A stretch of DNA of 64,000 nucleotides from a bacterium (GTDB lineage Bacteria > Zhuqueibacterota > Zhuqueibacteria > Zhuqueibacterales > Zhuqueibacteraceae): positions 15,303-79,302 of the forward strand of contig JBIOXB010000063.1 of NCBI GenBank assembly GCA_044869275.1, given 5' to 3'. Of this stretch, positions 1 through 57,123 are shown one piece after another (position 1 is the stretch's first letter; every line of letters begins with the position of its first letter). Both the position numbers and the translations under genes were made by a program. The notes beneath the pieces were generated by a model that saw nothing but the letters and a program-made list of their open reading frames with translations, ran no database searches and was not told the DNA's origin.

Positions 1-3000
1 GCACGCCCACTTTCTCCAACATCGAGTATGTCCGCGTTTGGATCGACAGTGTGGAGATTTCGCAAAACCCTGCCTTCGTGCAAATCGCTGAGATCAATCT
101 CGTCAGCAATGAATGGAAGGAAATCGGCTTATCCAATCAAGACAGCACGCTCACGGGCATCACACCAAATGACAAGAAGTTCAGAATCAGCGTGGTCAAC
201 ACGGAAGAAAATCCGTTCGCGCCGGCAAGCGCGTGCGATCCCGGCGAAAACAGTTACATTTCTCCTCCCGGCGTGCAGCGCGAACGCGACCGCATCAACC
301 AAGTCTTGGCAAAAGAACAATCGCAAGTTTTGGACGTCGATAGCCTGGGCCGTGATCAAAGCACGGCGATCGCGCAAAAAACATTTTACCAGCCCTTGAG
401 CTTCGTTCATTATGCCCGCCTGAAAATGTTCATTTACGGCGCGGACAACAACAGCGACTTGATCCAGCCGGACAACTCGCAAATCGAATTTTACATTCGT
501 TTCGGCGCAGATGAGAAGAATTTCTACGAGTTTCGCACGCGCGTGTATTGCGGCTGGGATCAGCGCAATGAAATGGATATCGATCTGGCCGAGCTGACGA
601 ATTTCAAACGAACCAGCGCAACGGCAACACAGGTCATTGACAGCACCGGGGCGCTGCCGGTTCCGATCAGCGGCTATTATTACAAGACCATTCCCGGTCC
701 GGTCGCGGGGGCGGTGCAAGAGCTGCGCGTGCGCGGCAACCCGTCGCTTACCAATATTCGCACCTTGGTCGCGGCGGTGCACAATCGCAGCAAGGACAGG
801 CTTTTTTTCGGTGAAATTTGGATGGACGAGTTGCGGGCCTCGGGCGTGGAAAAGCAGAAAGGCATTGCCGCGCGCGCCCGCGCGGATTTGAAGGTGGCCG
901 ACTTCGCCAATATCAACGCCGAGATCGAGCAGCTCGATGCTGATTTTCACAACGTTTCCACCCGCTTCGGCACCGGCGACAACTCCCGGCGCTTGACGCT
1001 GGGCGGCAGCGTGCAGGCGGACAAATTGCTGCCGCAATGGCTGGGATTGTCTGCGCCAGTGAGCGCGAGCTATTCCGAAAGCAGATCCACCCCCAAATAC
1101 TTCCCCGGCAGCGACATCATCGTGCTGACTTCGGAACTGGATGACACCACGCTCTCGCGCATCGAATCTTACACCAACCAGATGGGATTCAACCTCACCC
1201 TGCGCCGGCGCGTGAAGTCGAGCAATTTTTTCATCAAGAATACGATCGACAATGTAGGGGCGGGGTTGAGCTATACGTATGCCGATGCGCACAACAGCAC
1301 GACCAAACTTTCCCGGCGCACGGGCTTCGCCGGCAATTTGGATTATGCCCTGGCCTTCGGCAACAACAATTTCATCAAGCCGTTTGCGTGGATCGGCAGG
1401 GCGCCGCTCTTAGGCATGTTGCGCAATACCAAGCTCTATTACACGCCCCAGCGCGTCGATGCGCGCATGCAAGCGACGAGCACCGACTCGCGCAGTCAGA
1501 CCCGTACTCTCAAGCCGGGCGCTGAGGGGGAAATACCCGGCCTGCTGGTGCGTCCGCCCACGGACTACAACGTGCAGCACAGCTTCGGCACTTCCTTCAA
1601 AATTCTTGAAAATCTAACTGCGGACTTCTCCCGCGCCTACAGCAGCAAAGTCCGTCCCGACACCCTCAATGTCACCGGGGCCAAAGCCGGCAAAATCGGT
1701 TTTGCCGAAGGCTTGCAGCGTTTCGCCGATGGCTACGCGGATTTGCTCAGCAGCACGCAGAGCTTCAACGCGCGCTATAACCCGACGCTGGTGAGCTGGA
1801 TGACCAACAGCGTCACCTATACCAGCTCTTTTCGTTACAACAACAACATCCAACAAGTCGATGTCGGGCGCAGTGCGGGCGTGAGCTCCACCTTCGGGGT
1901 GACCTCCTCGATCCGCTTGTCGCAATTTTTCCAGTCTTTACAAAACAAGCGCAAGACCGCGACGACGCCCACCGGCACACGCAGGCCGCCGGGGCGGACG
2001 GCCCCGGGCGAGCAGCCGCCGAAAGAAGAGGGTCAGGAAGAGGAAGGCGCGCCGCAGCGCCGGCCGCCGGGCGAGCAGCCACCAGGTGAGCAGCCTCCGG
2101 GCGACAAAGAAGCACCCAAGGCAGGAGAGAAAACCAAAGAGAAATCGCAGCCAGAGGAAAAAGGCGGCGGCGCAGGCATCAATCCCGTTTCGCTTTTCAT
2201 CAACACTCTGGCCAAGCTCCGGGACGTCCAGTTGAGTTTCAATCAGCGTGACAATCTCAACCACAACGCGCTGGCTTCGGGCGACATCAACGTGAGATAC
2301 ATGTTCGGCTTGGAACCCGATCCGGGCACGGGCACGGCGAGCAATTATACCGGCATCTTCCGCTCGACGACGAAGGGCAAAACGTTCAGCGCCGCCACGG
2401 GCGTGGACCTGACCCGGAACCTCAATTTGAATCTGAAGTTCGATTACGACGTGCAGGAAACCGAGACCAGCAATCGTACCGGCACGACTGCTATGTCCTA
2501 TTTGCAATTGGGCAGCGAGGGCAGCGGCATTCCCTTCCCGGAATGGACGATCACGTGGAACGGCCTGGAGAAATTCCCGCTGTTCAGACGCATCGCCAGC
2601 TCGGCCAGCGCCAGCACCAATATCGGCGGCAAAAAATCCACGGCGTGGAAAGATTCCACCTCCGGTTTGATTGGCGAGGATTTTTCCCTCAATTTCCGCC
2701 CGCTGATACGCTTGAATATCAACTGGAAAAACGGCATGGTCACCACCGCGCAGTACAACCAAGCCAGCGGCTACCGGCCCACCTATAACCCCATCGGCCA
2801 ACTGGACGAAGAAGGGTTTCTCGACACCTTCCAAAGCGCGGCGTTCAGCCGCACCAACGATCTCTCGTTCACGCATACCTATTCCAAACGCTCGGGCTTT
2901 CGCATACCGCTGCCGTTTCTCAGAAACAAAGAGCTGAAAAACAGCGTCGATCTCAGCATCAATTACACGCGCAGCCTCACCGAGAGCAGCGCCAAATACA

Positions 3001-3194
3001 GCCGGGATTCGCAGGAAGTGGTAAACAACTCCACCGCGCGCTGGGAATTCAGCCCGCGCGTCACCTACACCTTCAGCAACCGCGTCCGGGGCGGCGCACA
3101 TTTTCTGTATGGCAAGACCGAAAGCCGCCTGATTGGCAAGACCACCATCACCGAGCTTGGCATCGACGTGAACATTTCGATTCGCGGGCAGTAG
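1..3194 (+). CDS. Very large outer-membrane protein, SprA/Sov-like (T9SS translocon-like). 5' end truncated by the window start: the frame is open from nt 3. Contains a Pro/Glu-rich repeat insert (PPGEQ x3).
   Basis: Frame open from position 3 with no upstream stop. About 1,060 aa are visible, consistent with a large beta-rich secreted/OM protein with a low-complexity PE-rich insert (aa ~640-700). The SprA assignment rests on recalled family features and is not verified. The antisense ORFs 129..1292 and 1938..3236 are shadow frames. Confidence 0.45.
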   Translation, partial: TPTFSNIEYVRVWIDSVEISQNPAFVQIAEINLVSNEWKEIGLSNQDSTLTGITPNDKKFRISVVNTEENPFAPASACDPGENSYISPPGVQRERDRINQVLAKEQSQVLDVDSLGRDQSTAIAQKTFYQPLSFVHYARLKMFIYGADNNSDLIQPDNSQIEFYIRFGADEKNFYEFRTRVYCGWDQRNEMDIDLAELTNFKRTSATATQVIDSTGALPVPISGYYYKTIPGPVAGAVQELRVRGNPSLTNIRTLVAAVHNRSKDRLFFGEIWMDELRASGVEKQKGIAARARADLKVADFANINAEIEQLDADFHNVSTRFGTGDNSRRLTLGGSVQADKLLPQWLGLSAPVSASYSESRSTPKYFPGSDIIVLTSELDDTTLSRIESYTNQMGFNLTLRRRVKSSNFFIKNTIDNVGAGLSYTYADAHNSTTKLSRRTGFAGNLDYALAFGNNNFIKPFAWIGRAPLLGMLRNTKLYYTPQRVDARMQATSTDSRSQTRTLKPGAEGEIPGLLVRPPTDYNVQHSFGTSFKILENLTADFSRAYSSKVRPDTLNVTGAKAGKIGFAEGLQRFADGYADLLSSTQSFNARYNPTLVSWMTNSVTYTSSFRYNNNIQQVDVGRSAGVSSTFGVTSSIRLSQFFQSLQNKRKTATTPTGTRRPPGRTAPGEQPPKEEGQEEEGAPQRRPPGEQPPGEQPPGDKEAPKAGEKTKEKSQPEEKGGGAGINPVSLFINTLAKLRDVQLSFNQRDNLNHNALASGDINVRYMFGLEPDPGTGTASNYTGIFRSTTKGKTFSAATGVDLTRNLNLNLKFDYDVQETETSNRTGTTAMSYLQLGSEGSGIPFPEWTITWNGLEKFPLFRRIASSASASTNIGGKKSTAWKDSTSGLIGEDFSLNFRPLIRLNINWKNGMVTTAQYNQASGYRPTYNPIGQLDEEGFLDTFQSAAFSRTNDLSFTHTYSKRSGFRIPLPFLRNKELKNSVDLSINYTRSLTESSAKYSRDSQEVVNNSTARWEFSPRVTYTFSNRVRGGAHFLYGKTESRLIGKTTITELGIDVNISIRGQ

Positions 3195-3389
3195 AGGATG
3201 ATATGACCGTTTTCTTGGCTGAGGCTCCATTCGCATAAACTACCGGCGTCACGCCCTCTTTGTTTTTCAGGCACATGCCTGAGCGCGGAATGACAAACAC
3301 ACCTCAGCGCCGGGCTATTGTGGGGTGCCGTATAACCATGAGTTCCAGACCAATGAGATCTTGTATCTCAAACAACTGGAGAAGCACAA

Positions 3390-4327
3390 TGAAAGGCATG
3401 ATGTGGTGTGCAATCGTTTCGAGTACTCTGGTGCTGACTCTCTCATGCCGGCCAGAGTTGCAAGAAGCGAGATTCTCGAGCTTCCCACAGTCCAAACTTG
3501 ATGCGGTCAACTTCTTAATCGGCGACCTGAGTTTTGTTGCAAAGTACGGGACACTGCCAGACAAAGAGGTTGACGAGAAACTAAGAATCTCGGTCCACTT
3601 GGAGTTCGTTGAAAACTTATTGCGCGAAAAGGCGTCTGGCCATTTAAGCCCCCTTCAAAGAAAAGCGAGATGGCAGAATATCGATCGCTTGCAAGAGTAT
3701 CGGCGGAACGGGATTTTTCCCCGGAATTATGATTATCCGAGCCGAAGGAAACCTTGTTTTATTGATAAATATGGCAGGATTTGTGCCGTGGGCCATCTCA
3801 TTGAAAAAACCGTAAATAGAAAATTTGCCGAGGAACATAATGCCCGATTTCAGTATCAGACCATTTTTGAGATGCAGTCTGTAGAACTGGAAGGGTGGAT
3901 TTCTCAAAGTGGCCTGAGCAGAGATGAACTCGCCATGATTCAACCGACTTATGGATTCGAAGAAGAAAATGGCAAAGACAAAATCTCAAAGGAAGTGGAA
4001 GCCGTAGGCCTAGCTCTTACTGGTTCATCCGTCTTAATTAATAGCATATACATAGGCCAGCAGAAAAAGCATTTGCTCGCGGGATCCTTGGGCCTCTTGC
4101 TCGGCACCACGAGTCTTGCCACGGGATTGTCAGATAAATCCAATTACAGTGTTCCCGATATCGCATTGGGGACTGCAGCAATAGTGACGGGGATTTTGAA
4201 TTTGTCTTTGGGGAGGAAAGAAAACAAAAGCTCGAACCACCGAGAGCCCATGCCTCAAAAAGCTCAAATCGGCCTTGGGATGATACCGGTAGAAAATCGA
4301 TTCGGTGTGGGATTAAGCATGAGATAG
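3390..4327 (+). CDS. Hypothetical lipoprotein/membrane protein in a lower-GC islet.
   Basis: The N-terminus MKGMMWCAIVSSTLVLTLSC is a lipoprotein-type signal. The C-terminal region has 2-3 hydrophobic helices. Local GC is visibly lower than the flanks. No recognisable catalytic motif. Confidence 0.45.
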
Positions 4328-4401
4328 ATTCTTTGATTTGAACTTGGGCGTGATTCCAAACATCGTCAAATTAGTGCGACCCAATCAAACACTCATATTG
4401 C

Positions 4402-5418
4402 ATGCCCCGCGTTAAAAAGAAGAAAAAACACCCTCATTCACGGCACCCGCGCGCAACGACGGAAAAGGCCCGGTCGTCATTTCCAACCAGGATCTGGTTG
4501 ATGGTCGGCCTCGGTGTGCTTGCGGCTGTGGCCATTTTGTTACTGTGGAAAAATTGGTCCGCAACAAAATTTGCCATACCCTCTTTCAATGGTGAAAACG
4601 CTTTTGCCCTTTTGCAAAAGCAATGCGATTACGGCCCGCGCGTACCGGGCACGGCCGCCCATGACAGTTGCCGCGTTTTCTTAGTGAACGAGCTGAGCAA
4701 ATATGCCGACAACGCCGTTGAGCAAAGCTTCGAGCATCAATTCGAGCGCTATCCGCAGCCGGTGAAATTGACCAATATCGTCGCCGGTTTTCAACTGCAG
4801 GCACCTCGCCGTGTGCTGCTGTGCGCGCATTGGGATTCGCGGCCCTGGGCAGATCAAGAAAACGATTCTTCCAAACATGACGACCCCGTTCTGGGCGCGA
4901 ACGACGGCGCCTCGGGCGTGGCGGTGCTGCTGGAGATCGCACGCGCATTGAAAGCCTCGCCGCCGCCCGTCGGCGTTGATCTGGTTTTATTCGACGGCGA
5001 AGACAGCGGCACAAGCGGCGTACCGCGCTCGTTCGCCATCGGCTCACAACATTTTGCCCGCACGCAGGGCGCCCAATATCGGCCGCTGTTCGGCATTCTA
5101 TTGGACATGGTCGGCGACCGCGATTTGCAGATTTATCAAGAAGCCAATTCCGCGCGCTATGCGCGCGGCCTCGTTGACCGCGTCTGGCAGCTCGCACGCG
5201 AGCAGCAGGTGCAAGAGCTCATTCCCACCGTGCGCCATGAAGTCTTCGACGATCACTATCCGCTGATCGAAGCCGGCATCCCGGTGATCGATCTCATCGA
5301 TTTCGATTATCCGCATTGGCACACGCTCAACGACCTCCCGGAACAATGCAGTCCCGCCAGTTTGGAAAAAGTCGGAAAAGTCGTGCTTGCCGCGATTTAT
5401 GATCACCGCGCCTGGTGA
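4402..5418 (+). CDS. M28-family peptidase / glutaminyl-peptide cyclotransferase-like protein with an N-terminal membrane anchor.
   Basis: Motifs HWDSRPWADQ, ANDGASGVAVLLEIARAL and LVLFDGEDSG match the M28/glutaminyl-cyclase zinc-binding core. An N-terminal transmembrane helix is present. Confidence 0.8.
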   Translation: MPRVKKKKKHPHSRHPRATTEKARSSFPTRIWLMVGLGVLAAVAILLLWKNWSATKFAIPSFNGENAFALLQKQCDYGPRVPGTAAHDSCRVFLVNELSKYADNAVEQSFEHQFERYPQPVKLTNIVAGFQLQAPRRVLLCAHWDSRPWADQENDSSKHDDPVLGANDGASGVAVLLEIARALKASPPPVGVDLVLFDGEDSGTSGVPRSFAIGSQHFARTQGAQYRPLFGILLDMVGDRDLQIYQEANSARYARGLVDRVWQLAREQQVQELIPTVRHEVFDDHYPLIEAGIPVIDLIDFDYPHWHTLNDLPEQCSPASLEKVGKVVLAAIYDHRAW

Positions 5419-11465: not shown

Positions 11466-12611
11466 TCAATTAAACTTCGTGAAAGTCACTTCCAAATGCC
11501 TGGCCTGCCCCGTCGCGTGCTCCCATTGCACCAAAATCGGGCTTTGATACGTGCCGTGCACGATGCGGCTTTTGCCGTCGCTGGGGCTTTCGGAGACCAG
11601 CAGGCTCACGTGGCGTTTCATGCGCAAAAAGCGCGAGGCGGGCACGCGAATGAACGTCGAAAGAATCTTTTCCACCACCGACTCGCTCACGCCGAAAGCA
11701 TCCATCACTTCATTGAACAGGTGCACCAGATCGTATTTGGCATAATCCATGGTTTTGCTCGGGATCGCTTTGGGATCGAGCAGCATGTGTTTGCCTTGCA
11801 TGGCGACGAATTTCAAAGGATTGCGTAAGACCTCGGCAAGGTCGTGCCGCATCAACAAAGTCTCATATTCATTCACCGTCAATCCCGCATGCCGCTCGCT
11901 GGGCGGAAGCGCCAAATCAATCCGGCCTTTTTCCATGCCGAACTTGTGCGCCAACTCTTCGAGCTGCTCGAAAAAGCCGTAGCGCGGATCTTTGAGATTG
12001 ATGGAATCGATCGGATGCTTGGAAACCGGGATCGCAATCTTGTCCCGATGCACGACGGCCTCATCGTTGTAAAAAAGCGCGCGCGTTTGCCGCGTGCGAT
12101 GCCCGGTTTCGTGAATCCCGTCCAGGTCGATGAAATAAACCGGTTTGCCCGGGCGGTTGACGTAGGTCACGCAATTCTTCAGGCCCGAACCAATGAAGGT
12201 CAGATGCGAATCGCCGTTTCTAGGCTCGCACTTGCGCTGCTCCTCGCTCAGCTCCATGCGATGCTCCATCTGATCATGGCGGTAGTCCGCTTCCGGCGGA
12301 AAGAGCTTTTGGAAGGCGCGTATGAAAGGCGTGACGTGATCGCGGCTGTGCCGCAAGCGTGCGCACAGGCTCTGCTCCAGATAGCCGGCCGTGGTGTGAA
12401 AAGAACAATACACCACTTTGCGATAATCCGCCAGTGCGTCGCCCAATTCCGCGGCGAGGCGATGTGCGACATCGATGATATCAAAACGTGCACGCGGCAC
12501 GAGCGCCAGGGTGATTTCCTTTGGATGCGCAACCATTCCAGCTCTCCGATTGCCAGGGATAGAGATTTCTTTCATTTTCTCGATGTTGTTTCGTGCCCTC
12601 CAATCGGGCAA
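11466..12611 (-). CDS. Hypothetical protein with an N-terminal YjbQ/UPF0047-like segment.
   Basis: CSFHTTAGYLEQ resembles the UPF0047 signature H-T-[ST]-A-[SG]. The rest has no recognised motif. Weak call. Confidence 0.35.
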   Translation of the reverse strand: MPDWRARNNIEKMKEISIPGNRRAGMVAHPKEITLALVPRARFDIIDVAHRLAAELGDALADYRKVVYCSFHTTAGYLEQSLCARLRHSRDHVTPFIRAFQKLFPPEADYRHDQMEHRMELSEEQRKCEPRNGDSHLTFIGSGLKNCVTYVNRPGKPVYFIDLDGIHETGHRTRQTRALFYNDEAVVHRDKIAIPVSKHPIDSINLKDPRYGFFEQLEELAHKFGMEKGRIDLALPPSERHAGLTVNEYETLLMRHDLAEVLRNPLKFVAMQGKHMLLDPKAIPSKTMDYAKYDLVHLFNEVMDAFGVSESVVEKILSTFIRVPASRFLRMKRHVSLLVSESPSDGKSRIVHGTYQSPILVQWEHATGQARHLEVTFTKFN

Positions 12612-12943
12612 AACAAGGTAAACTTAGGATTTCTAAGCTGCAATGTCAAGTTCATCTTCGCCATATCGATGGAGAGATAACTTTCATACAAATCATTCAT
12701 GTAGATGAGATGGGCCGAAATTGCGGAAGGGAATTTCATGAACAATCCACGTAAACATGGAACCACCATTCAAACATAGCCGCCGCTTTCTTTTAGTGTG
12801 ACCGATCTGCAAAAAATGCCTTCGTGACGAAGGCACACTTACCAACTTATATTGTCACATGAAATTTTCCAAACAGTTTTTGGTGGGAAATTCAAACTGC
12901 AAAATCATCCGGTTCGGGCTCAGAACTTGATGCTGGAGAAGTT

Positions 12944-13105
12944 ATGGAGAAACGGAAGGATTTGAAAACAATGGACTGGACCTTCACCATGGGTGAGACC
13001 GTAATCAAGATCATGACCCGGCTGTTTGGGCTGATTCTCGCGGTAATGGCGGTGCAGTTCGTGATCAATGGGGTGAGGGATTCGTTTCCTGAAGTGTTTG
13101 CCTGA
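12944..13105 (+). pseudogene. Orphan C-terminal fragment of a MarC-family (UPF0056) membrane protein, 53 codons. Likely a gene remnant.
   Basis: Hand translation: MEKRKDLKTMDWTFTMGETVIKIMTRLFGLILAVMAVQFVINGVRDSFPEVFA*. The TRLFGLILAVMAVQFVINGV motif is the conserved C-terminal helix of MarC-family proteins. There is no room upstream for the missing ~150 aa, because a minus-strand gene ends at 12611. Confidence 0.45.
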
Positions 13106-13109
13106 ACTA

Positions 13110-13215
13110 CTCTTACTGCTACTCTCACTCGTGCTCTTACTCCTACTCTTACTCGCTTCTCAAATAGCGGAAAAGCGAGTAAGAGTAGGAGCAAGAGTTA
13201 GAGCAGGAGCAAAGG
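13110..13215. repeat. Long imperfect inverted repeat (stem ~28-38 bp, loop AAATAGCG) built from CTCTTACTC-type short tandem units. Candidate bidirectional terminator or REP-like element between convergent genes.
   Basis: Left arm gctcttactcctactcttactcgcttctc (13133-13161) pairs with right arm gaaaagcgagtaagagtaggagcaagag (13170-13197) with 2 mismatches. No U-tract. It generates the low-complexity ORFs 12892..13194 and 13098..13313. Confidence 0.6.
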
Positions 13216-28505: not shown

Positions 28506-29146
28506 GGCAGGCCGGCCCCTCGCAACGGCGGCGAAACCGCCCACTCGGAAAGGCCGTGCGCGCGCTGTTCGCCGCCGAAAAAAAAGGAGATCAGATCGTT
28601 CAAATTCAGACTGAACCCGGAACGGCCTGCCTCTGCGGCCGAGGTTCCGCCTTCGAAATCATTTGAAGTGATGCGTTGCAGGAGCTGCCTGCTTTGTTCC
28701 GCGCTGATGGCGACCACTGCGACCCGCAAGCGCAGCCGGTAGACTGTCGCACCGTCGCGCATCATGCCCTGAAAAAACGCCGTCGTTTGAAAATCTCTCA
28801 ATATCTTTTCCACCTCGGTAAAGGTCGCGGCGAAACGAACGGTGTCCGGAAACGCCAGGCGATAGCGCTGCGCCCAAATGTCGTATTTCACTTCAACCGC
28901 TTGCAGTGCGCGCGCTTTTTCTTTGCCGTCAACCATCAGACGAAAATCGTGTTGCACAATCGCCGGCAAGCCGCTGCGAATGGTACTTACAATTTTTGGT
29001 GCAAACAAGTTTTCGAGCTGCACGCGTGCCAGGATTTTTTCGCCTTGCGGCATAGCAGTCAGGCCGCGAATCTTAGGCTGTTGCGCGCCCAGCGGCCAGG
29101 CAAGGCAGAAGATCAAGCAGAAAACTGTTGTCAGCGGGCGGCGCAT
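28502..29146 (-). CDS. Secreted DUF4390-like protein, translationally coupled to the kinase (ATGA stop/start overlap).
   Basis: Signal peptide MRRPLTTVFCLIFCLAWPLGAQQ. Paralogous to 5514..6191. The stop TGA overlaps the kinase ATG (ccATGAgaacg on the minus strand). Confidence 0.55.
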   Translation of the reverse strand: MRRPLTTVFCLIFCLAWPLGAQQPKIRGLTAMPQGEKILARVQLENLFAPKIVSTIRSGLPAIVQHDFRLMVDGKEKARALQAVEVKYDIWAQRYRLAFPDTVRFAATFTEVEKILRDFQTTAFFQGMMRDGATVYRLRLRVAVVAISAEQSRQLLQRITSNDFEGGTSAAEAGRSGFSLNLNDLISFFFGGEQRAHGLSEWAVSPPLRGAGLP

Positions 29147-29150
29147 GCGT

Positions 29151-30536
29151 TTAGAAAGTATGTCCCAAAGCAATGTGAAAACGGAAATCGTCGCGGTCAA
29201 GCGGGTAGGCGAAATCGCAGCGCAACAATCCGATGACGGGCAGTTTCAAACGGAAACCGTAACCGGCCGACATAAAGAGCTCTTTTCCGGTTTCCGTATT
29301 TTCGAAATCGTTGATGTGGCCGGCGTCAAAAAACAGCGCCGCGCTCAGGGAAGGATTCTGCGGCGCACCGGCGAGAGGGAAACGCATTTCGATTTGGCCG
29401 AGCGCCATGTCAGTGCCCCAGCCCAGCGGCGTCAAGCTGCGCTCGGCATAGCCGCGCACGGAATAAGCGCCACCGAGGTAAAAACGCTCATAAAACGGCG
29501 CCGTTTCCGAAACGCGGCCGGCTTTGGCACGCACTGCCAGCACGTTTCTACCGAAAGCGCGATAGCCGCGTGCGTCAAAAATGTAGCGGCTGAAATCGTT
29601 GAAATCAGGCCCGGAATTTTTGAAGGTGCTTTCAAATTGCATGGCAGCCCACAATCCGTGGCGCGGAAAGGCGGGGTGGTCGCGGGTATCAAGCTGCAAG
29701 CGCAAAAATGCACTATTGCTTTTTGCGCGCGGCTCGGTCACCAGCGGCGGTGGCAGAGCGGTAATCGTGCTGTCCGTCGCAGCCAAACGCACCTCCGGCG
29801 CAGGCGTCCACGTGTTGAAATTGAGCCCAAGAGAGACATAGCGCGACCAGCCGCGATGGCCGGAGAACGCCAGCAGCAGATTGTCGTTCTGGACTTCCTG
29901 TATCGCTTCTTCGCTGTCTATATAATGAATAAAATTCTGATTGAAGGCTCCCAGCTTCAACTGGAAATCCAGGTTCGATCCGAACAGCTCTTGCTCGCGA
30001 TAATGCCAGTAGAAGCCCACGGTGCGGTCGGCGAAGATGAAGCGGCCGCCGCCGATGCCGCCGCCGCCGAAGAGATTGTCGAAGCGCACGCCGATCGGGA
30101 TCAAATACCAGCCTTCCAGCTCGCTGAAACCGCCGGCGATTTCCAGCCAGGGCCAGCGGCGCTCCTCGATTTCGATCACCATCACCACCTGGCCCGGCGC
30201 GCTGCCCGGCTTGGAGCTGAATTCGACGCGCTTGAAGAAATTGGTGGCCACGAGCGCGTCGTAATTCTGCGCGATCATTTCCGGCGTGATCGCCGCGCCT
30301 TCTTTCATGTTCAAATAGCGGCGAATCACCTGCGGTTTGGTTTTGGTCGCGCCCTGGATTTCGATGCGCTCGATGATGAGGGCTTGGTGGACCGTTTGAA
30401 TGGAGTGGGAGACGGGGAGACTGGGAGAAGGATGCGGCGCAGGCGTTTGCTGCGCGAAAGCCATCAAAGCTGGAATGATGAAGATAGTTATGAATTCCAG
30501 CAAGAAGATGTTTCTTTTTCGTTGCAATAAGTTCAT
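29151..30536 (-). CDS. Omp85-family (BamA/TamA-like) outer-membrane protein with one POTRA domain.
   Basis: Signal peptide plus a POTRA-like segment (IERIEIQGATKTKPQVIRRYLNMKEGAAI). The C-terminal beta-barrel ends ...FRFHIALGHTF (terminal aromatic). The stop lies 4 nt from the DUF4390-like start. Confidence 0.75.
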   Translation of the reverse strand: MNLLQRKRNIFLLEFITIFIIPALMAFAQQTPAPHPSPSLPVSHSIQTVHQALIIERIEIQGATKTKPQVIRRYLNMKEGAAITPEMIAQNYDALVATNFFKRVEFSSKPGSAPGQVVMVIEIEERRWPWLEIAGGFSELEGWYLIPIGVRFDNLFGGGGIGGGRFIFADRTVGFYWHYREQELFGSNLDFQLKLGAFNQNFIHYIDSEEAIQEVQNDNLLLAFSGHRGWSRYVSLGLNFNTWTPAPEVRLAATDSTITALPPPLVTEPRAKSNSAFLRLQLDTRDHPAFPRHGLWAAMQFESTFKNSGPDFNDFSRYIFDARGYRAFGRNVLAVRAKAGRVSETAPFYERFYLGGAYSVRGYAERSLTPLGWGTDMALGQIEMRFPLAGAPQNPSLSAALFFDAGHINDFENTETGKELFMSAGYGFRLKLPVIGLLRCDFAYPLDRDDFRFHIALGHTF

Positions 30537-30696
30537 GAAACAGAATCTAGTGAAAATATACCACACTGTAGCTTCATAGCCGCTGTCGACTGCGCGAATT
30601 TGACCTCAAATGGCCTATTTTGTTTGTGTTGTTCGGATGACAAAACAGGTTTCATCACATTTTTGCTATTTTCATGCCAAAAAACATGTTGAGACT

Positions 30697-31197
30697 TTAC
30701 TTTTTCATCCGCCTCGTGGTCTTGCGTTTTCTCTCATAGGCTGCCCGAGGATCAGCAACTTTCTGCAGGCTTCCGCTCTCTGCAGAAAGTCTGTAGGTGC
30801 TCAAAGCCTTCTTCCGCGACTTGGCAATGGCTTCTTCCTGTAGAATGTCGTCCAAATACCACCACCAATGGGAGCGGTCGTAACGGCCTTCACGATAACG
30901 ACGAAGCATCCCCTTGCCGGAACCAAGCAGAAGTAATGCTGCCGCTCTGATCTCACGATCAAGTTTTGCCAGGTCCCTCTTTTGAGATTTATCGAGTGCC
31001 TGTGGCGCGTTTTCCAAGATATTTTGCAGCTCACTGCGATGCCAAAGTAACGCATGGACATCGTCAGAAACGTCGAGAATAGCATCCTCTGCTGAAGGCG
31101 GAATCGTTCCCGGTAGGAAGTCAGTCAACCAGGACAGAAGACACGTCGCGCGTTTATGAAGAGCTTGCTTTGAGTTTTTTGGTGAGCGCATATTCAT
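30697..31197 (-). CDS. Hypothetical protein (166 aa) in a ~50% GC islet, immediately downstream of the DUF4258-like gene.
   Basis: ORF with a basic C-terminal tail. No motif. TAG-ATG adjacency with the upstream gene. Confidence 0.35.
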   Translation of the reverse strand: MNMRSPKNSKQALHKRATCLLSWLTDFLPGTIPPSAEDAILDVSDDVHALLWHRSELQNILENAPQALDKSQKRDLAKLDREIRAAALLLLGSGKGMLRRYREGRYDRSHWWWYLDDILQEEAIAKSRKKALSTYRLSAESGSLQKVADPRAAYERKRKTTRRMKK

Positions 31198-31530
31198 CTA
31201 CCATGGTGACCAAATGAGTTCGATCTTTGCTTGCCTTAATAAGTAGTTGAGACCGGCATTTGCGATAAAACCTGTTTTTACGTAGGTTGGGTACGTGTCC
31301 GGACTCCAGGCTACAAAAACATTGTTGCGCGGGTTTAGAAATGCAATTGTTCTCCCCTCAGTTTCATATTGTCCAACGTAGCTGTGCTTGCTGATAGTCT
31401 TTTCCGCCTCTTTCATTGTCACACCATGTCTCTGCAATTTGAGATGAAGAAGATGATGGAATCTTCCCAGAGCAAAGTCGCGCTTGACATTATCGATTAA
31501 CTCGTCAATCTGCGCTTCCGTCCACGACAT
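31198..31530 (-). CDS. DUF4258-like small protein (putative toxin-like).
   Basis: HHLLHLKLQRHGVTMKEAEKTI...GRTIAFLNPRNNVFVAWSPDTYPTYVKTGF fits the DUF4258 pattern H..eR..eRgI..e.....i......gR........v.vV.....vit.f. Assignment from memory, not verified. Confidence 0.4.
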   Translation of the reverse strand: MSWTEAQIDELIDNVKRDFALGRFHHLLHLKLQRHGVTMKEAEKTISKHSYVGQYETEGRTIAFLNPRNNVFVAWSPDTYPTYVKTGFIANAGLNYLLRQAKIELIWSPW

Positions 31531-31594
31531 TTACTTTCTTTCTCCCATTTTCCCTCTCACCCACTCGCCCCGTTCTCCCTGTTATCTCCCTCTC

Positions 31595-34327
31595 TCATTT
31601 CTCCCCTAGACGCTCCAACGCCGCCAGCGCCTCTGGTACGTGCTCGCCCCAAGGGAAGCGGTCGAGGTATTCTTGATAACGCTGGCGGGCTTCGGAGGTG
31701 CGGCCAGCGGCCTCAAGGGCGTGGCTAAGTTTGAATATATAACGCGATAAGCGGAAAGGTCGCTGCTCGAGTTGAATACCAATCTTATATTCCGCTATCG
31801 CGTGTTCAGGTTGATTGAGATTTTCAGAATAAATGTCTGCTATACTAATGTGCGGTCCCGCGTACTCCTGATCGAGAGTAATAGCTTTTTGAAATTCTTC
31901 TAATGCAGCCTCGTAGTCGCCTTTTCTTAGCAAAGTGACCCCGAGATGGGCATGTGCCCACTCCAAATCTTCCTTTAATTCAATCGCTCGGCGTAAACAA
32001 ATTTCTGCTTCTTTAGAGTTTCCTAAATCATTGTAAGCCCTACCCAAGTTTCCCCAAAGCCATGCTTCATTGGGTGCTAATGTTAGACACTTCATACAAT
32101 GCTCGATTGAGATTTCAGGATTTCTGGCCTGTCGAAATGCCCAAGCAAGTAATCCTCTTAACTCAAAATCAACTGGGTTCTCATTTACTAAAGGCTCAAG
32201 AAATAAAATTGTTCTCTCTGAAAGCCGCAGACCAATGAGAAATATGGCAAATACGCTAAATGCTTTCGCCTTCTGACTATACACACGTTCAAAAAGCACT
32301 GGCAGTGCTCTGGTATCGGTTTTGCATTCAAGTGATAAAACGACAAGCATTTCTTCATATACTTTTCCAAACCATGCACTTTCTAAATCCTTGCTTAACT
32401 TTTGAATGAGAATTATGACCAATACATCAACAAATTTTCGATCAATTTCTTTCGCATAAACTGCACACTTCGCCGCCAGATACGGATCCCTCTTCATCAC
32501 CTCCCTCACCACTTCCGTCGCATTATCAAGCAACCCGCACACAAACACCAAAACTTCCGCCCATTCCGGATCGCCCACATGCTTCAGCACATATTCCAAG
32601 GATTGATGCAACGCCACTTCCCGCGCAAAGAAATACTCCTGCACAGCTTGATGAAAGAATCCCGTCTGCCCGGCACTTTCGCGCAACAGGCCGTGATAGA
32701 GAAATTCGCGATTGAGTGCCGCAACATTGAGATTGTCAGGTGCCTCTTTCTTGTTTTGCAATTCAGCGAGACGGGCAGACATCGCGGCGGCAGCCTCGTC
32801 CGCCGAAAGCAATGTGCGGCTAGTGCCCAGCCGCCATGCCAGCGCCGAGAGAATCTCCTTTTCTACGCGCACCGAGCCTGCGCCTTTCACGCGCGCCCAT
32901 TCGCTCAAATAGCGGTCGATAAAACGGTCAAAAAGCTGGGCGCGGTTTTGGGGCGGGTCGTCGCCAGCGCGCAGCTCATCGGCGAGCATCGTGAGCATGA
33001 GTGGATTGCGGCAAAGGTCGCGGGTGTATTCGTCCAGGCCTTTCCATGCAGCTTGCGCTTGGTCCGCACCGATTTCAATCTCTAGAACTTTGGAGGCATT
33101 GAAGCTGCCCAATCGCTCCAATTGAAATGTCACAAATTCGTGACGCAACTCGTCGCGATAGACGCCCGGCCGGCAGGTGACCACAAAGCGGTTTTGCGGA
33201 ATCTCATTGAGGAGATGGTGGATTTGATGTACGACTTCGTCATATGCCTCGCCGACTTCATTCAGTCCATCAAACAAAAGCAAACAGCCGCCGGCGGCGA
33301 GGCGCTTGCGTACGTCAACATCGTGCACGCCGCGCACGCTGGCGGTGAGGAGGCGCCAGAGGCCGTGTTTTGCATCTCCGCTGGAGATCGTGGGATACGC
33401 CGAGAGATCGAGGAAGATAGGCAGGTTGAAATCTTCCGGCTCATTCAGCCCTGGTTGCTGGCCTTCGCCGCGCCACACCGCATACTCAGCGGCCAGCTTT
33501 TTGAGCGAAGTGGTTTTGCCTGCGCCCGGCTCGCCGAGAATGAGCAAACGCGGAAACATTTTGACCGCGTTGCTCACTTTCATGTTGCGCGGCCGCTCGG
33601 CTTCCACCTCTTCGAGAAAAAGCGGGGGCAAATTGAGCGTGCGTAGGCGCAGCGGCCGAGCGGTTTTCTGTAACTCGGTTCGGCAATAGGCGAGATGTTC
33701 TGCAAAAGCGGAGAGGGGCGGTGCCTCTACCGGTCGTTCACCCGCAGTGGCCGGCCGGTGGCCGGCAGCGGGCACCAACTTCAATAACCAATCGGTAAGG
33801 TGATGCCGCAGCAGCGCGGCAAAATGCTCGGGGTCGCGATAAAGCGAGTAGAGTGCAAGATGCCCGGCTTCCACCTGTTTCTTGAACTCCAGAACTTTTT
33901 GCAATTGCGGGCCGGGATCGGTGAGAAAATCCGGATGCACCTCACGGAAATACAGCATGATCTCCGGCGCGCGCTCTTTGGCAAAGCGTTCACGAGCGAG
34001 GTTGAATTCTTCCAACGTGCCTGACTCTGCCTCACCGCTGGGCAAACCGAATCGCCGCCATAAAATGCCGAGGAATAAATCGCATTCTCGCACGAGGCGG
34101 TTGATCAATTCCTGGCTGCGCCCCATGCCGGGCGTGGCATGCGTTTCCCAGCCGACAGGCTCGAGATCGTAACCCTGTTTGTGCGCCACCGGCCGCAAGC
34201 TGAGGATTTCGTCGCGCGCTTTATCGCGCTCGGGCATGACGTCGCCGGGCGAGGCGATGAAAATTTTAAGCAATTGGATGGTTCGGCCGGGCATGGACGA
34301 TCTCAATACAAGTTCTCGTACTGCCAC
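31595..34327 (-). CDS. STAND NTPase, bacterial NLR-like: DUF4062-like N-terminal domain, NACHT ATPase, helical region, C-terminal TPR repeats.
   Basis: N-terminal LKIFIASPGDVMPERDKARDEI (DUF4062-like). Walker A GEPGAGKTT. Walker B LLLFDGLNEV. C-terminal TPRs (WLWGNLGRAYNDLGNSKEAEICLRRAIEL...). An alternative start at MPGRT is 11 codons in. Confidence 0.75.
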   Translation of the reverse strand: MAVRELVLRSSMPGRTIQLLKIFIASPGDVMPERDKARDEILSLRPVAHKQGYDLEPVGWETHATPGMGRSQELINRLVRECDLFLGILWRRFGLPSGEAESGTLEEFNLARERFAKERAPEIMLYFREVHPDFLTDPGPQLQKVLEFKKQVEAGHLALYSLYRDPEHFAALLRHHLTDWLLKLVPAAGHRPATAGERPVEAPPLSAFAEHLAYCRTELQKTARPLRLRTLNLPPLFLEEVEAERPRNMKVSNAVKMFPRLLILGEPGAGKTTSLKKLAAEYAVWRGEGQQPGLNEPEDFNLPIFLDLSAYPTISSGDAKHGLWRLLTASVRGVHDVDVRKRLAAGGCLLLFDGLNEVGEAYDEVVHQIHHLLNEIPQNRFVVTCRPGVYRDELRHEFVTFQLERLGSFNASKVLEIEIGADQAQAAWKGLDEYTRDLCRNPLMLTMLADELRAGDDPPQNRAQLFDRFIDRYLSEWARVKGAGSVRVEKEILSALAWRLGTSRTLLSADEAAAAMSARLAELQNKKEAPDNLNVAALNREFLYHGLLRESAGQTGFFHQAVQEYFFAREVALHQSLEYVLKHVGDPEWAEVLVFVCGLLDNATEVVREVMKRDPYLAAKCAVYAKEIDRKFVDVLVIILIQKLSKDLESAWFGKVYEEMLVVLSLECKTDTRALPVLFERVYSQKAKAFSVFAIFLIGLRLSERTILFLEPLVNENPVDFELRGLLAWAFRQARNPEISIEHCMKCLTLAPNEAWLWGNLGRAYNDLGNSKEAEICLRRAIELKEDLEWAHAHLGVTLLRKGDYEAALEEFQKAITLDQEYAGPHISIADIYSENLNQPEHAIAEYKIGIQLEQRPFRLSRYIFKLSHALEAAGRTSEARQRYQEYLDRFPWGEHVPEALAALERLGEK

Positions 34328-56745: not shown

Positions 56746-57123
56746 TTATACCAATGGAAAATTGAAGCACATAAAGTCGGAATAGGGGAAAATAGCCATG
56801 ATGGAATACACGCGCTTAAGGACAAGGCTTCCAGTCGAATGATTTCGAGATGGGCGGTGAGCGCCAGCCAATCCCCAAAGTTCAGACCAACGTGGCTGGT
56901 CATTCACGCGCAAGCCCTTGGTCAGGCCGACGTCGAGCACGTGGCGATTGTGGTGGGTGGCGACCGAGATCGCAGTGATCCCTCCTTCCACCACGCCGTA
57001 CCCTTGAAAAGGATAGCGGTCGAGTTTAAATACCTGCAACTCGCCGAGATTTGCGAGAGATTGTCCGGAGTCCTGGATCAGAAACTCCCGCACCGTCTTG
57101 CTGCACAATTGTAGACTGTCCAC
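56746..57123 (-). pseudogene. Possible gene remnant in the lower-GC island boundary.
   Basis: 125-aa ORF with no start context or motif, in a ~50% GC block. The opposite strand carries a similar orphan ORF (56698..57114). Either may be a fragment. Confidence 0.2.

Follow-up and report, generated by a model that had tools for sequence, protein, structure and literature searches.

The DUF4062 domain, a TIR-like domain also called NIR, was described in three 2026 preprints as an NADase that depletes nicotinamide adenine dinucleotide (NAD+) in anti-phage defence. The DUF4062 NADase systems described in the 2026 preprints are Swarozyc, Evangelion, Vulcan, Vesta and one Avs2 protein with a DUF4062 effector, and the active domain of human TEP1 is a DUF4062 domain too. 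The catalytic glutamate of the characterised proteins is E97 in KpSwz, E1008 in TEP1 and E108 in PsAvs2, and NIR genes are enriched close to defence genes. Here we analyse a gene that encodes such a domain at its N terminus. It lies in a 64,000-nucleotide (64-kb) stretch of contig JBIOXB010000063.1 from a member of the Zhuqueibacteraceae, hereafter the window, in which positions 30697-34327 hold three open reading frames (ORFs) of 910, 110 and 166 amino acids, all on the minus strand. With a probability of roughly 0.7, we consider the largest to be a chromosomal NLR-like STAND antiviral receptor of the KSB1/Zhuqueibacterota lineage, with a replaceable sensor and a 3' tail that acts as a docking repeat for cassettes. 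The protein would thus be a new member of the recently defined NLR-like receptors with an NIR effector.

Pfam searches placed DUF4062 (PF13271) at residues 21-111 (33.7 bits against a cut-off of 24.7) and NACHT (PF05729) at residues 261-415 (42.6 bits, cut-off 26.7); residues 730-895 were covered by several TPR families, also above their thresholds. This order, a DUF4062 effector followed by NACHT and TPR domains, is the tripartite layout of antiviral STAND/NLR-like proteins, in agreement with a preliminary description made from the DNA letters alone. The Walker A (GEPGAGKTT) and Walker B (LLLFDGLNEV) motifs reported there are intact, with G265, P267-T272, L350, L351 and D353-E357 invariant among 43 aligned homologues. 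Residues are numbered throughout from the GTG at 34327, which opens the 910-residue frame given in that description. The frame exists, but the ATG at 34294 is the likely start, yielding 899 residues, because an identical database entry (P0001) has 899 residues and all orthologues begin with MPG. The features of the locus, all on the minus strand, are as follows.

31595-34294, minus strand: NLR-like STAND gene, 899 amino acids from the ATG; open frame to the GTG at 34327, 910 amino acids
33995-34267, minus strand: DUF4062/NIR domain, predicted TIR-like NADase effector, from Pfam, PADLOC and domain-profile matches; E107 codon at 34007-34009 in the motif SGTLEEF
33083-33547, minus strand: NACHT NTPase domain, from Pfam; Walker A GEPGAGKTT at 33509-33535, Walker B LLLFDGLNEV at 33254-33283
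31715-32494, minus strand: replaceable AT-rich patch, the putative sensor, residues 612-871, a helical region plus TPRs; from composition, identity contrast and breakpoints
31595-31714, minus strand: conserved 3' tail (T), residues 872-910 plus stop, last TPR and C terminus; invariant 29-nucleotide core at 31654-31682
31531-31594, minus strand: purine-rich 64-nucleotide spacer from the NLR stop to the s110 start, no terminator predicted
31198-31530, minus strand: s110, an ORF of 110 amino acids, first cassette gene
30697-31197, minus strand: s166, an ORF of 166 amino acids with a homologue family, second cassette gene

The N-terminal domain was matched by the PADLOC profile PDC-S60 at residues 18-187 (E = 1.4e-29), covering positions 3-173 of the 906-position profile. 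A profile of 17 N-terminal domains, drawn from the family and its distant relatives, matched the solved DUF4062 domains of TEP1 (E = 1.1e-8) and KpSwz (E = 3.1e-8). This profile was needed, as a PDB search with the single N-terminal domain sequence gave no matches; a PDB sequence search with the NACHT core returned nothing useful. E107 is invariant, both across the 43 orthologues and across 17 diverse DUF4062 domains, and it aligns with an alanine of the deposited KpSwz chain. Since that chain is the E97A mutant, as stated in its paper, E107 is the equivalent of the catalytic residue. A catalytically dead reading, in which the KpSwz alignment seemed to put the catalytic glutamate one residue past the conserved threonine, was ruled out by the E97A chain. 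By analogy with the characterised proteins, the N-terminal domain is predicted to be a DUF4062/NIR TIR-like NADase that hydrolyses NAD+ with E107 as its catalytic glutamate.

Codons 612-871 are a discrete AT-rich module that is swapped wholesale between alleles. Mean pairwise protein identities, computed per region across aligned orthologues, were 0.80 (0.70-1.00) for the N-terminal domain, 0.87 (0.69-0.99) for residues 200-610, 0.435 (0.27-0.92) for residues 625-860 of the patch and 0.85 (0.42-1.00) for the tail. Spearman's rho was 0.15 for patch against core distances and 0.44-0.51 between the conserved parts. The following pairs of homologues, the last of which is the reverse case, illustrate the pattern.

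P0008 and P0020: core 98%, patch 39%, tail 93%
P0020 and P0029: core 98%, patch 35%, tail 98%
P0005 and P0040: core 95%, patch 28%, tail 93%
P0004 and P0011 (reverse case): core 84%, patch 79%, tail 95%

At the DNA level, loci L001 and L013 were 0.87-1.00 identical in the core (except at residues 172-211), 0.53-0.70 identical over codons 612-871 and 0.93 identical thereafter, with sharp breakpoints at codons ~612 and ~872. Synonymous-codon identity just outside the junctions was raised to 0.72 (5') and 0.81 (tail) over a baseline of ~0.58, as expected for recombination anchors under continual homogenisation. The C terminus is thus far from uniform among homologues, and the allele comparison (cores 95-98%, tails 84-98% and patches 28-39% identical, with breakpoints at both ends) bears out the proposal in the preliminary description of a rapidly exchanging sensor module. 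The AT-rich part was said there to coincide with the TPR/sensor region; it does include most of the TPRs, but it also takes in the helical stretch ahead of them and leaves out the final TPR, which is conserved.

A patch-only protein search was flooded by generic TPR proteins, and whole-patch coverage was given only by members of the NLR family. No silent donor or template-repeat copy of the patch was found in the 64-kb window (blastn, word size 7, E<=1). With no silent donor in the window and whole-patch matches only in the family, allelic replacement within the lineage is the simplest explanation. The exchange most likely proceeds by homologous recombination, with crossovers in the conserved core and the conserved 3' tail. 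By analogy with related receptors, the patch would bind the phage trigger. Between the DUF4062 and NACHT domains, at window positions 33724-33843 (residues 172-211), the protein has another short variable stretch. Conservation falls there to 0.55-0.56 from ~0.9 on either side, and the DNA of L001 and L013 is 0.57-0.69 identical; this stretch is probably a flexible linker.

The patch also stands out in base composition. The lowest G+C content (GC) over 600 nucleotides in the window, 0.407, lies inside the NLR gene at 31801-32500, against a window mean of ~0.549 (standard deviation 0.040), so that the dip first noticed in the C-terminal part of the gene is real. GC and GC at third codon positions (GC3) were 0.578 and 0.655 in the core (residues 12-611), 0.409 and 0.346 in the patch (residues 612-871, nucleotides 31715-32494) and 0.658 and 0.692 in the tail (last 39 codons). 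The range of GC3 within the gene, 0.29-0.72, is the largest among 41 long ORFs of the window, the ranges of the others being at most 0.26. Patch GC is lowered at all three codon positions and most at the third; thus, amino-acid composition alone does not explain the shift. Most orthologues have the same dip (GC3 of 0.27-0.47 in six, weaker in L003 and L008). This makes the dip a lasting feature of the pool of patches, rather than the single recombination scar that it had first been taken for.

To place the receptor in its lineage, homologues were collected by protein search. About 60 full-length homologues of ~900 residues, with 65-80% identity and the same architecture, were recovered, and every named one was from candidate division KSB1. 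A genome scan located 12 loci, among them metagenome-assembled genomes (MAGs) of Candidatus Zhuqueibacter and Coneutiohabitans; Zhuqueibacter is classified under Candidatus Zhuqueibacterota. Searches of plasmids returned only distant NACHT matches below 30% identity and no close relatives, and none were found in phage collections. Synteny with the window was kept only in L012 (aconitase 87%, methyltransferase 72%), while the remaining NLR loci occupied at least four further genomic contexts. The NLR gene of this one syntenic locus (L012:10013-12724) is itself interrupted.

A codon-level selection analysis covered eleven loci with ten distinct alleles. In the core, the synonymous rate (dS) was ~1.2, the nonsynonymous rate (dN) 0.067 and dN/dS ~0.055. 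A ratio this low at such a dS indicates an old core under strong purifying selection and no recent spread. Purifying selection is very strong on the effector, on the NACHT core and on the final ~40 codons. Thus the gene is an old receptor kept by many genomes of the lineage, and not the sporadic defence islet gene that had been suspected.

Some members of the family have further genes beside them. On one short contig, L004, two NLR paralogues stand in tandem, at 34-2163 (62% identical to the window protein) and 2302-4947 (74%). Small genes lie directly upstream of other orthologues: a 23S_rRNA_IVP or weak bAvd-like four-helix protein at L013:5484-5858, and BrnT/BrnA toxin-antitoxin genes at L015:5573-5908 and L023:5329-5902. 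Small modules therefore appear to be attracted to both sides of the NLR gene.

In related genomes, the 3' tail recurs as a repeat. In L006, the last 106 nucleotides of the NLR gene are found three more times downstream, spaced 961-998 nucleotides apart and 90-93% identical, while identity among the intervening cassettes is only 61-83%. The pattern is likewise present in L005, in L013, whose two tails enclose a PemK toxin pair, in L016, which has four tails, and in L022. Ten further tail-array loci were obtained from metagenome contigs scanned for the invariant tail core; 48 tail copies were mapped in related loci. In most arrays each ~1-kb cassette has a tail copy ahead of it, and the last cassette usually has none after it; L022 and L031 carry an extra terminal tail copy with no recognised cassette behind. 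Arrays in related genomes contain up to five or more cassettes in an order that is shuffled between arrays. The recurring cassettes are a 96- plus 138-residue pair (the commonest), DUF3800, a 147-residue protein paired with DUF5678, PemK with an 81-residue protein, and s110 with s166. The window represents the one-cassette state, consisting of NLR, tail, 64-nucleotide spacer, s110 and s166, and the unit of tail, spacer, s110 and s166 is common to the window and the last unit of L016.

The invariant core of the tail has one exact match in the window (31654-31682), with zero expected by chance, and the left end of the repeat (residues ~865-877) is the 3' junction of the patch. In related genomes the tail is the repeat found ahead of each downstream cassette, and it is probably also the anchor for recombination at the 3' end of the gene. 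The tail is constrained or homogenised at the DNA level; its dS is 0.41, as compared with ~1.2 in the core. Identity among tail copies was 0.909 within an array and 0.908 ahead of the same cassette type, versus 0.875, both effects being small. This slight clustering would be expected if tails move together with their cassettes and are also homogenised locally, and it does not decide the mechanism. Neither strand of the repeat folded more stably than shuffled sequence (z between -0.96 and +1.34), and no inverted repeats were found in L006:11500-16500, which includes tail copies; an attC/integron reading of the repeat was rejected, as neither strand has a significant hairpin. The genes called up to ~6 kb from the arrays, to which this check was confined, include no recombinase, and the tail core was absent from the viral contigs scanned.

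The commonest cassette, the 96- plus 138-residue pair, lies on the strand opposite the NLR gene in L006:12720-15393 and also in L002, L003, L013, L022 and L024-L033. It had no Pfam, PADLOC or NCBIfam match and only weak PHROG matches, in which function is unassigned; a HEPN/MNT guess for the pair was unsupported by the same Pfam, PADLOC and NCBIfam searches.

A more specific proposal for the tail is tentative, and we would put it at well under even odds. Under this proposal, an undescribed cassette system would use the last ~100-130 nucleotides of the NLR gene as its dedicated docking site, with an integron-like outcome but neither an attC hairpin nor a recognisable integrase; ~1-kb cassettes, most of them toxin-antitoxin-like pairs of genes and each carrying a copy of the NLR tail, would insert, excise and reshuffle there through recombination, and the same repeat would serve as the 3' anchor for sensor exchange. 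A trans-acting recombinase would possibly recognise the invariant 29-41-nucleotide core. If the proposal holds, receptor specificity and cassette cargo are mobilised through one conserved sequence, and a dedicated mechanism would make the tail repeat a new type of recombination hotspot.

The expected mode of action follows characterised relatives. The sensor would bind a phage- or infection-derived protein; binding would lift autoinhibition, allowing the NACHT domains to oligomerise and bring the NADase domains together; NAD+ would then be hydrolysed, and the infected cell would arrest or die (abortive infection). The same analogy suggests the anti-phage function that the preliminary description had assigned to the gene.

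Several points weigh against an antiviral receptor with a replaceable sensor and a docking repeat. For this protein and its close relatives, defence function, trigger and NAD+ depletion are all argued by analogy; a literature search found no experimental work on this receptor family, and nothing on PDC-S60 or EruA. The PADLOC check suggested at the outset did return PDC-S60, but for the N-terminal domain only, and none of the named systems modelled in PADLOC or NCBIfam, Avs types among them, fits the whole protein. The EruA model (NCBIfam) scored 63 bits against a cut-off of 1000, over part of the NACHT region only. Such strong conservation of the core across the lineage is unusual for defence genes, and a non-defence signalling role would fit it too. 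In-frame stops interrupt the alleles of L012 (codon 575) and L002 (codon 880), and the gene of L022 (6001-8706) is split inside the patch into ORFs of 722 and 143 residues; these interrupted alleles may reflect decay, errors in the MAGs or a gene that is truly split. Low GC3 in the patch has several possible causes, namely imported composition, AT-biased mutation at high turnover and missing biased gene conversion, the last possibly in a region too divergent for internal recombination. No foreign donor family for the AT-rich patch emerged from the exhaustive patch-only protein search. Finally, recombination at the tail could be homologous or site-specific.

The main competing explanation, which we judge unlikely but by no means negligible, is that the protein is not antiviral and that its polymorphic sensor serves self/non-self discrimination (kin recognition or allorecognition) or other lineage-specific signalling, as in the fungal HET-type NLRs with hypervariable TPR/WD repeats. 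The core is conserved like that of a housekeeping gene (dN/dS of 0.055 with dS near saturation), the gene is kept in many genomes and several contexts, and the lack of a named defence system that fits the whole protein is in keeping with this explanation. Very divergent patches on near-identical scaffolds would also be expected under balancing selection on recognition alleles, and a non-antiviral recognition alternative was raised for bacterial NACHT sensors by Doré et al. (PMC10907252). However, all bacterial DUF4062 systems characterised so far are anti-phage systems that act via NAD+ depletion, the enrichment of NIR genes near defence genes points the same way, and nothing in the data points to a secreted or surface-exposed partner. 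We therefore favour an antiviral receptor.

It is more doubtful still that the AT-rich patch arose through relaxed constraint, or through very fast in-place divergence under AT-biased mutation, with no exchange of modules. Saturation of dS makes rates hard to compare, stop codons occur in or near the patch in some alleles, and the drop in GC at all three codon positions would be in keeping with such divergence. In-place divergence is disfavoured by pairs that are 95-98% identical over 600 core residues and yet differ at 61-72% of the patch, whereas a pair with 84% identical cores shares 79% of the patch. The abrupt DNA breakpoints on both sides argue against it as well. In addition, patch dN is 0.51 with a dN/dS below 1, and 41 of the 43 aligned homologues retain the full-length frame and the TPR signatures. 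Collectively, these data argue for replacement of the patch as a module.

The two small genes downstream of the receptor form a co-oriented pair in which the TAG of s110 directly abuts the ATG of s166, as had been noted. Their GC contents are 45% and 50%, so that the earlier value of ~50% holds for one of them and not for the other. The s110 protein had been called DUF4258-like, a label that failed every sequence comparison. It had no Pfam match at E<=1, DUF4258 included, and no PADLOC or NCBIfam match; none of 11 members of the small s110 family matched DUF4258 (PF14076) at E<=10; and hhalign of s110 against a genuine DUF4258 protein from L018 gave a probability of 0.3%. The predicted fold of s110 has three helices and a 4-5-stranded sheet and resembles RelE, MqsR, colicin D/E5 and CDI RNase toxins, so that a RelE/ParE-BECR-type RNase fold is possible. 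The s166 family comprises 104 or more homologues; all of them lack a Pfam domain, and a contig often carries several. The protein is helical, with an invariant HWWW...D motif and a disordered C terminus, in a model of low confidence (predicted local distance difference test score, pLDDT, of 64.5).

An s166 homologue always adjoins an s110 homologue, and the co-oriented pair was seen in four distinct settings as well as in tandem triplicate. None of the orthologues in the 12 genome loci has the pair beside it. In L016 it stands at the end of the cassette array, with three other cassettes between it and the NLR gene, and in L018-L021 it lies between sucC and sucD (succinyl-CoA synthetase beta and alpha) with no NLR gene nearby. 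Its absence from the 12 loci and its presence at sucC-sucD without an NLR gene indicate an independent two-gene module. From its distribution, the pair is not a required partner of the NLR gene, and the small genes can no longer be counted as its partners, as they first were. The pair is most likely a selfish, toxin-antitoxin-like module, for which toxicity and neutralisation are predicted. The insertions between sucC and sucD (e.g. L018:6001-8539) have the same orientation as their neighbours, almost no intergenic space and no NLR tail repeat, and L018 and L019 each contain three tandem, diverged copies of the s110-s166 type.

That the NLR gene, s110 and s166 constitute one three-gene defence system, in which s110 would be a toxin effector or partner of the DUF4258 type, is therefore very improbable. 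In its favour, the three genes share a strand, the 64-nucleotide spacer contains no predicted terminator, s110 and s166 are stop-start adjacent, the s110 model resembles RNase toxins, and L016 repeats the pair downstream of an orthologue. This explanation is largely refuted by the distribution of the pair, namely its absence at the 12 loci, the three cassettes that intervene in L016, and its occurrence at sucC-sucD in up to three tandem copies away from any NLR gene; other cassettes occupy the same position elsewhere, and the DUF4258 comparisons fail. A receptor gene with an independent cassette behind it is the reading that we retain.

Distant relatives of the receptor (P0064-P0077 and P0084-P0085; 25-31% identity over up to ~70% of the query) combine NACHT, mostly with DUF4062, and a C-terminal FGE-sulfatase/SUMF1 domain. 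Diversification of the patch by targeted hypermutation, through a diversity-generating retroelement (DGR) or similar as in NACHT-CLec sensors, would draw on the resemblance of these relatives to the DGR-diversified class and on the weak bAvd-like gene upstream of the L013 orthologue, but is rejected because the window has no template-repeat copy of the patch, the variable stretch of ~780 nucleotides is far longer than a DGR variable region and its differences are not confined to particular bases, the fold is TPR and not a C-type lectin, and no reverse transcriptase was called in annotated orthologue neighbourhoods (other window genes were not scanned for one).

In the window, the locus is flanked downstream by an Omp85-like gene and a histidine kinase and upstream by a methyltransferase and an aconitase-family gene, all of which look like housekeeping genes. 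No tRNA gene was found in the 64 kb. The Omp85-like gene (29151-30566, minus strand) is overlapped in antisense by a 550-residue ORF at 28878-30530 on the plus strand; this ORF is most likely spurious, the shadow of a GC-rich gene. Other low-GC stretches (600-nucleotide GC of 0.43-0.46) lie at 3260-4327, 12600-13200, 57100-57800, 59009-59638 and 63200-64000 and include a 355-residue ORF at 47% GC and a 209-residue ORF with a GC3 of 0.46; these may be further accessory insertions.

With one conserved effector and NACHT scaffold joined at defined junctions to dozens of very different sensors, the family constitutes a natural experiment. It offers material to map pairs of sensors and phage components, to build chimeric receptors and to study the evolution of specificity without disturbing autoinhibition. 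Bacterial NLR-like receptors are central to the origin of innate immunity, and the DUF4062/NIR NADase shared with human TEP1 was recognised only in 2026. If the receptor is antiviral, a phylum that is uncultured and little studied has maintained a 'core' immune receptor over a long time, and not only sporadic defence islands. The tail arrays further suggest that small cassettes are assembled and shuffled around an immune gene without known integron machinery. In a limited literature search, neither a discrete replaceable patch with conserved anchors nor the 3' end of a gene acting as a cassette-array repeat was found to have been described.

Among known systems, PsAvs2 with its DUF4062 effector (bioRxiv 10.64898/2026.09.04.749371) is similar in having an N-terminal NADase with a catalytic glutamate, a STAND NTPase and a TPR-type sensor, and the expected mechanism is the same: a phage protein is sensed, the receptor oligomerises, NAD+ is depleted and the infection is aborted. 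However, the NTPase of the present protein is a Pfam NACHT domain, no PADLOC Avs-type model matched, and the sensor is, as far as tested, unrelated to known terminase or portal sensors. The gene also differs from that class in being chromosomal and specific to KSB1/Zhuqueibacterota, with a sharply bounded patch and a tail repeat that are undescribed there. Swarozyc (KpSwz), Evangelion, Vulcan and Vesta are one- or two-gene DUF4062 systems with a similar effector fold and catalytic motif, in which the 'E-Y region' corresponds to E107-F108 here; unlike the present receptor, they lack NACHT, carry other auxiliary domains and are often located on plasmids or mobile elements. In human TEP1, NWD1, NWD2 and NPHP3, DUF4062 likewise adjoins a NACHT ATPase followed by C-terminal repeats, but these eukaryotic proteins have WD40 or other repeats and extra domains (TROVE), and no orthology is implied. 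The bNACHT proteins and EruA have the NACHT core in common with the receptor, with partial similarity to EruA, and differ in effector and sensor.

For the cassette arrays, the nearest parallels are integrons, Xer/dif module arrays and hotspots at gene 3' ends, which resemble them in their tandem ~1-kb cassettes of mostly one or two genes, several of them toxin-antitoxin-like, their ~100-130-nucleotide repeat and their varied order. In the present arrays, by contrast, the repeat consists of coding sequence from the 3' end of the NLR gene, shows no significant hairpin, has no integrase seen nearby and precedes its cassette rather than following it. For the sensor, NACHT-CLec/FGE sensors are reported to be diversified by DGRs in multicellular bacteria (Doré et al. 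2024, PMC10907252). These sensors and the hypervariable repeats of fungal and plant NLRs share with the receptor a conserved NTPase scaffold joined to a fast-diversifying C-terminal sensor; whereas they vary by retroelement mutagenesis or repeat shuffling, the receptor described here varies through a module of ~780 nucleotides that is swapped between conserved anchors.

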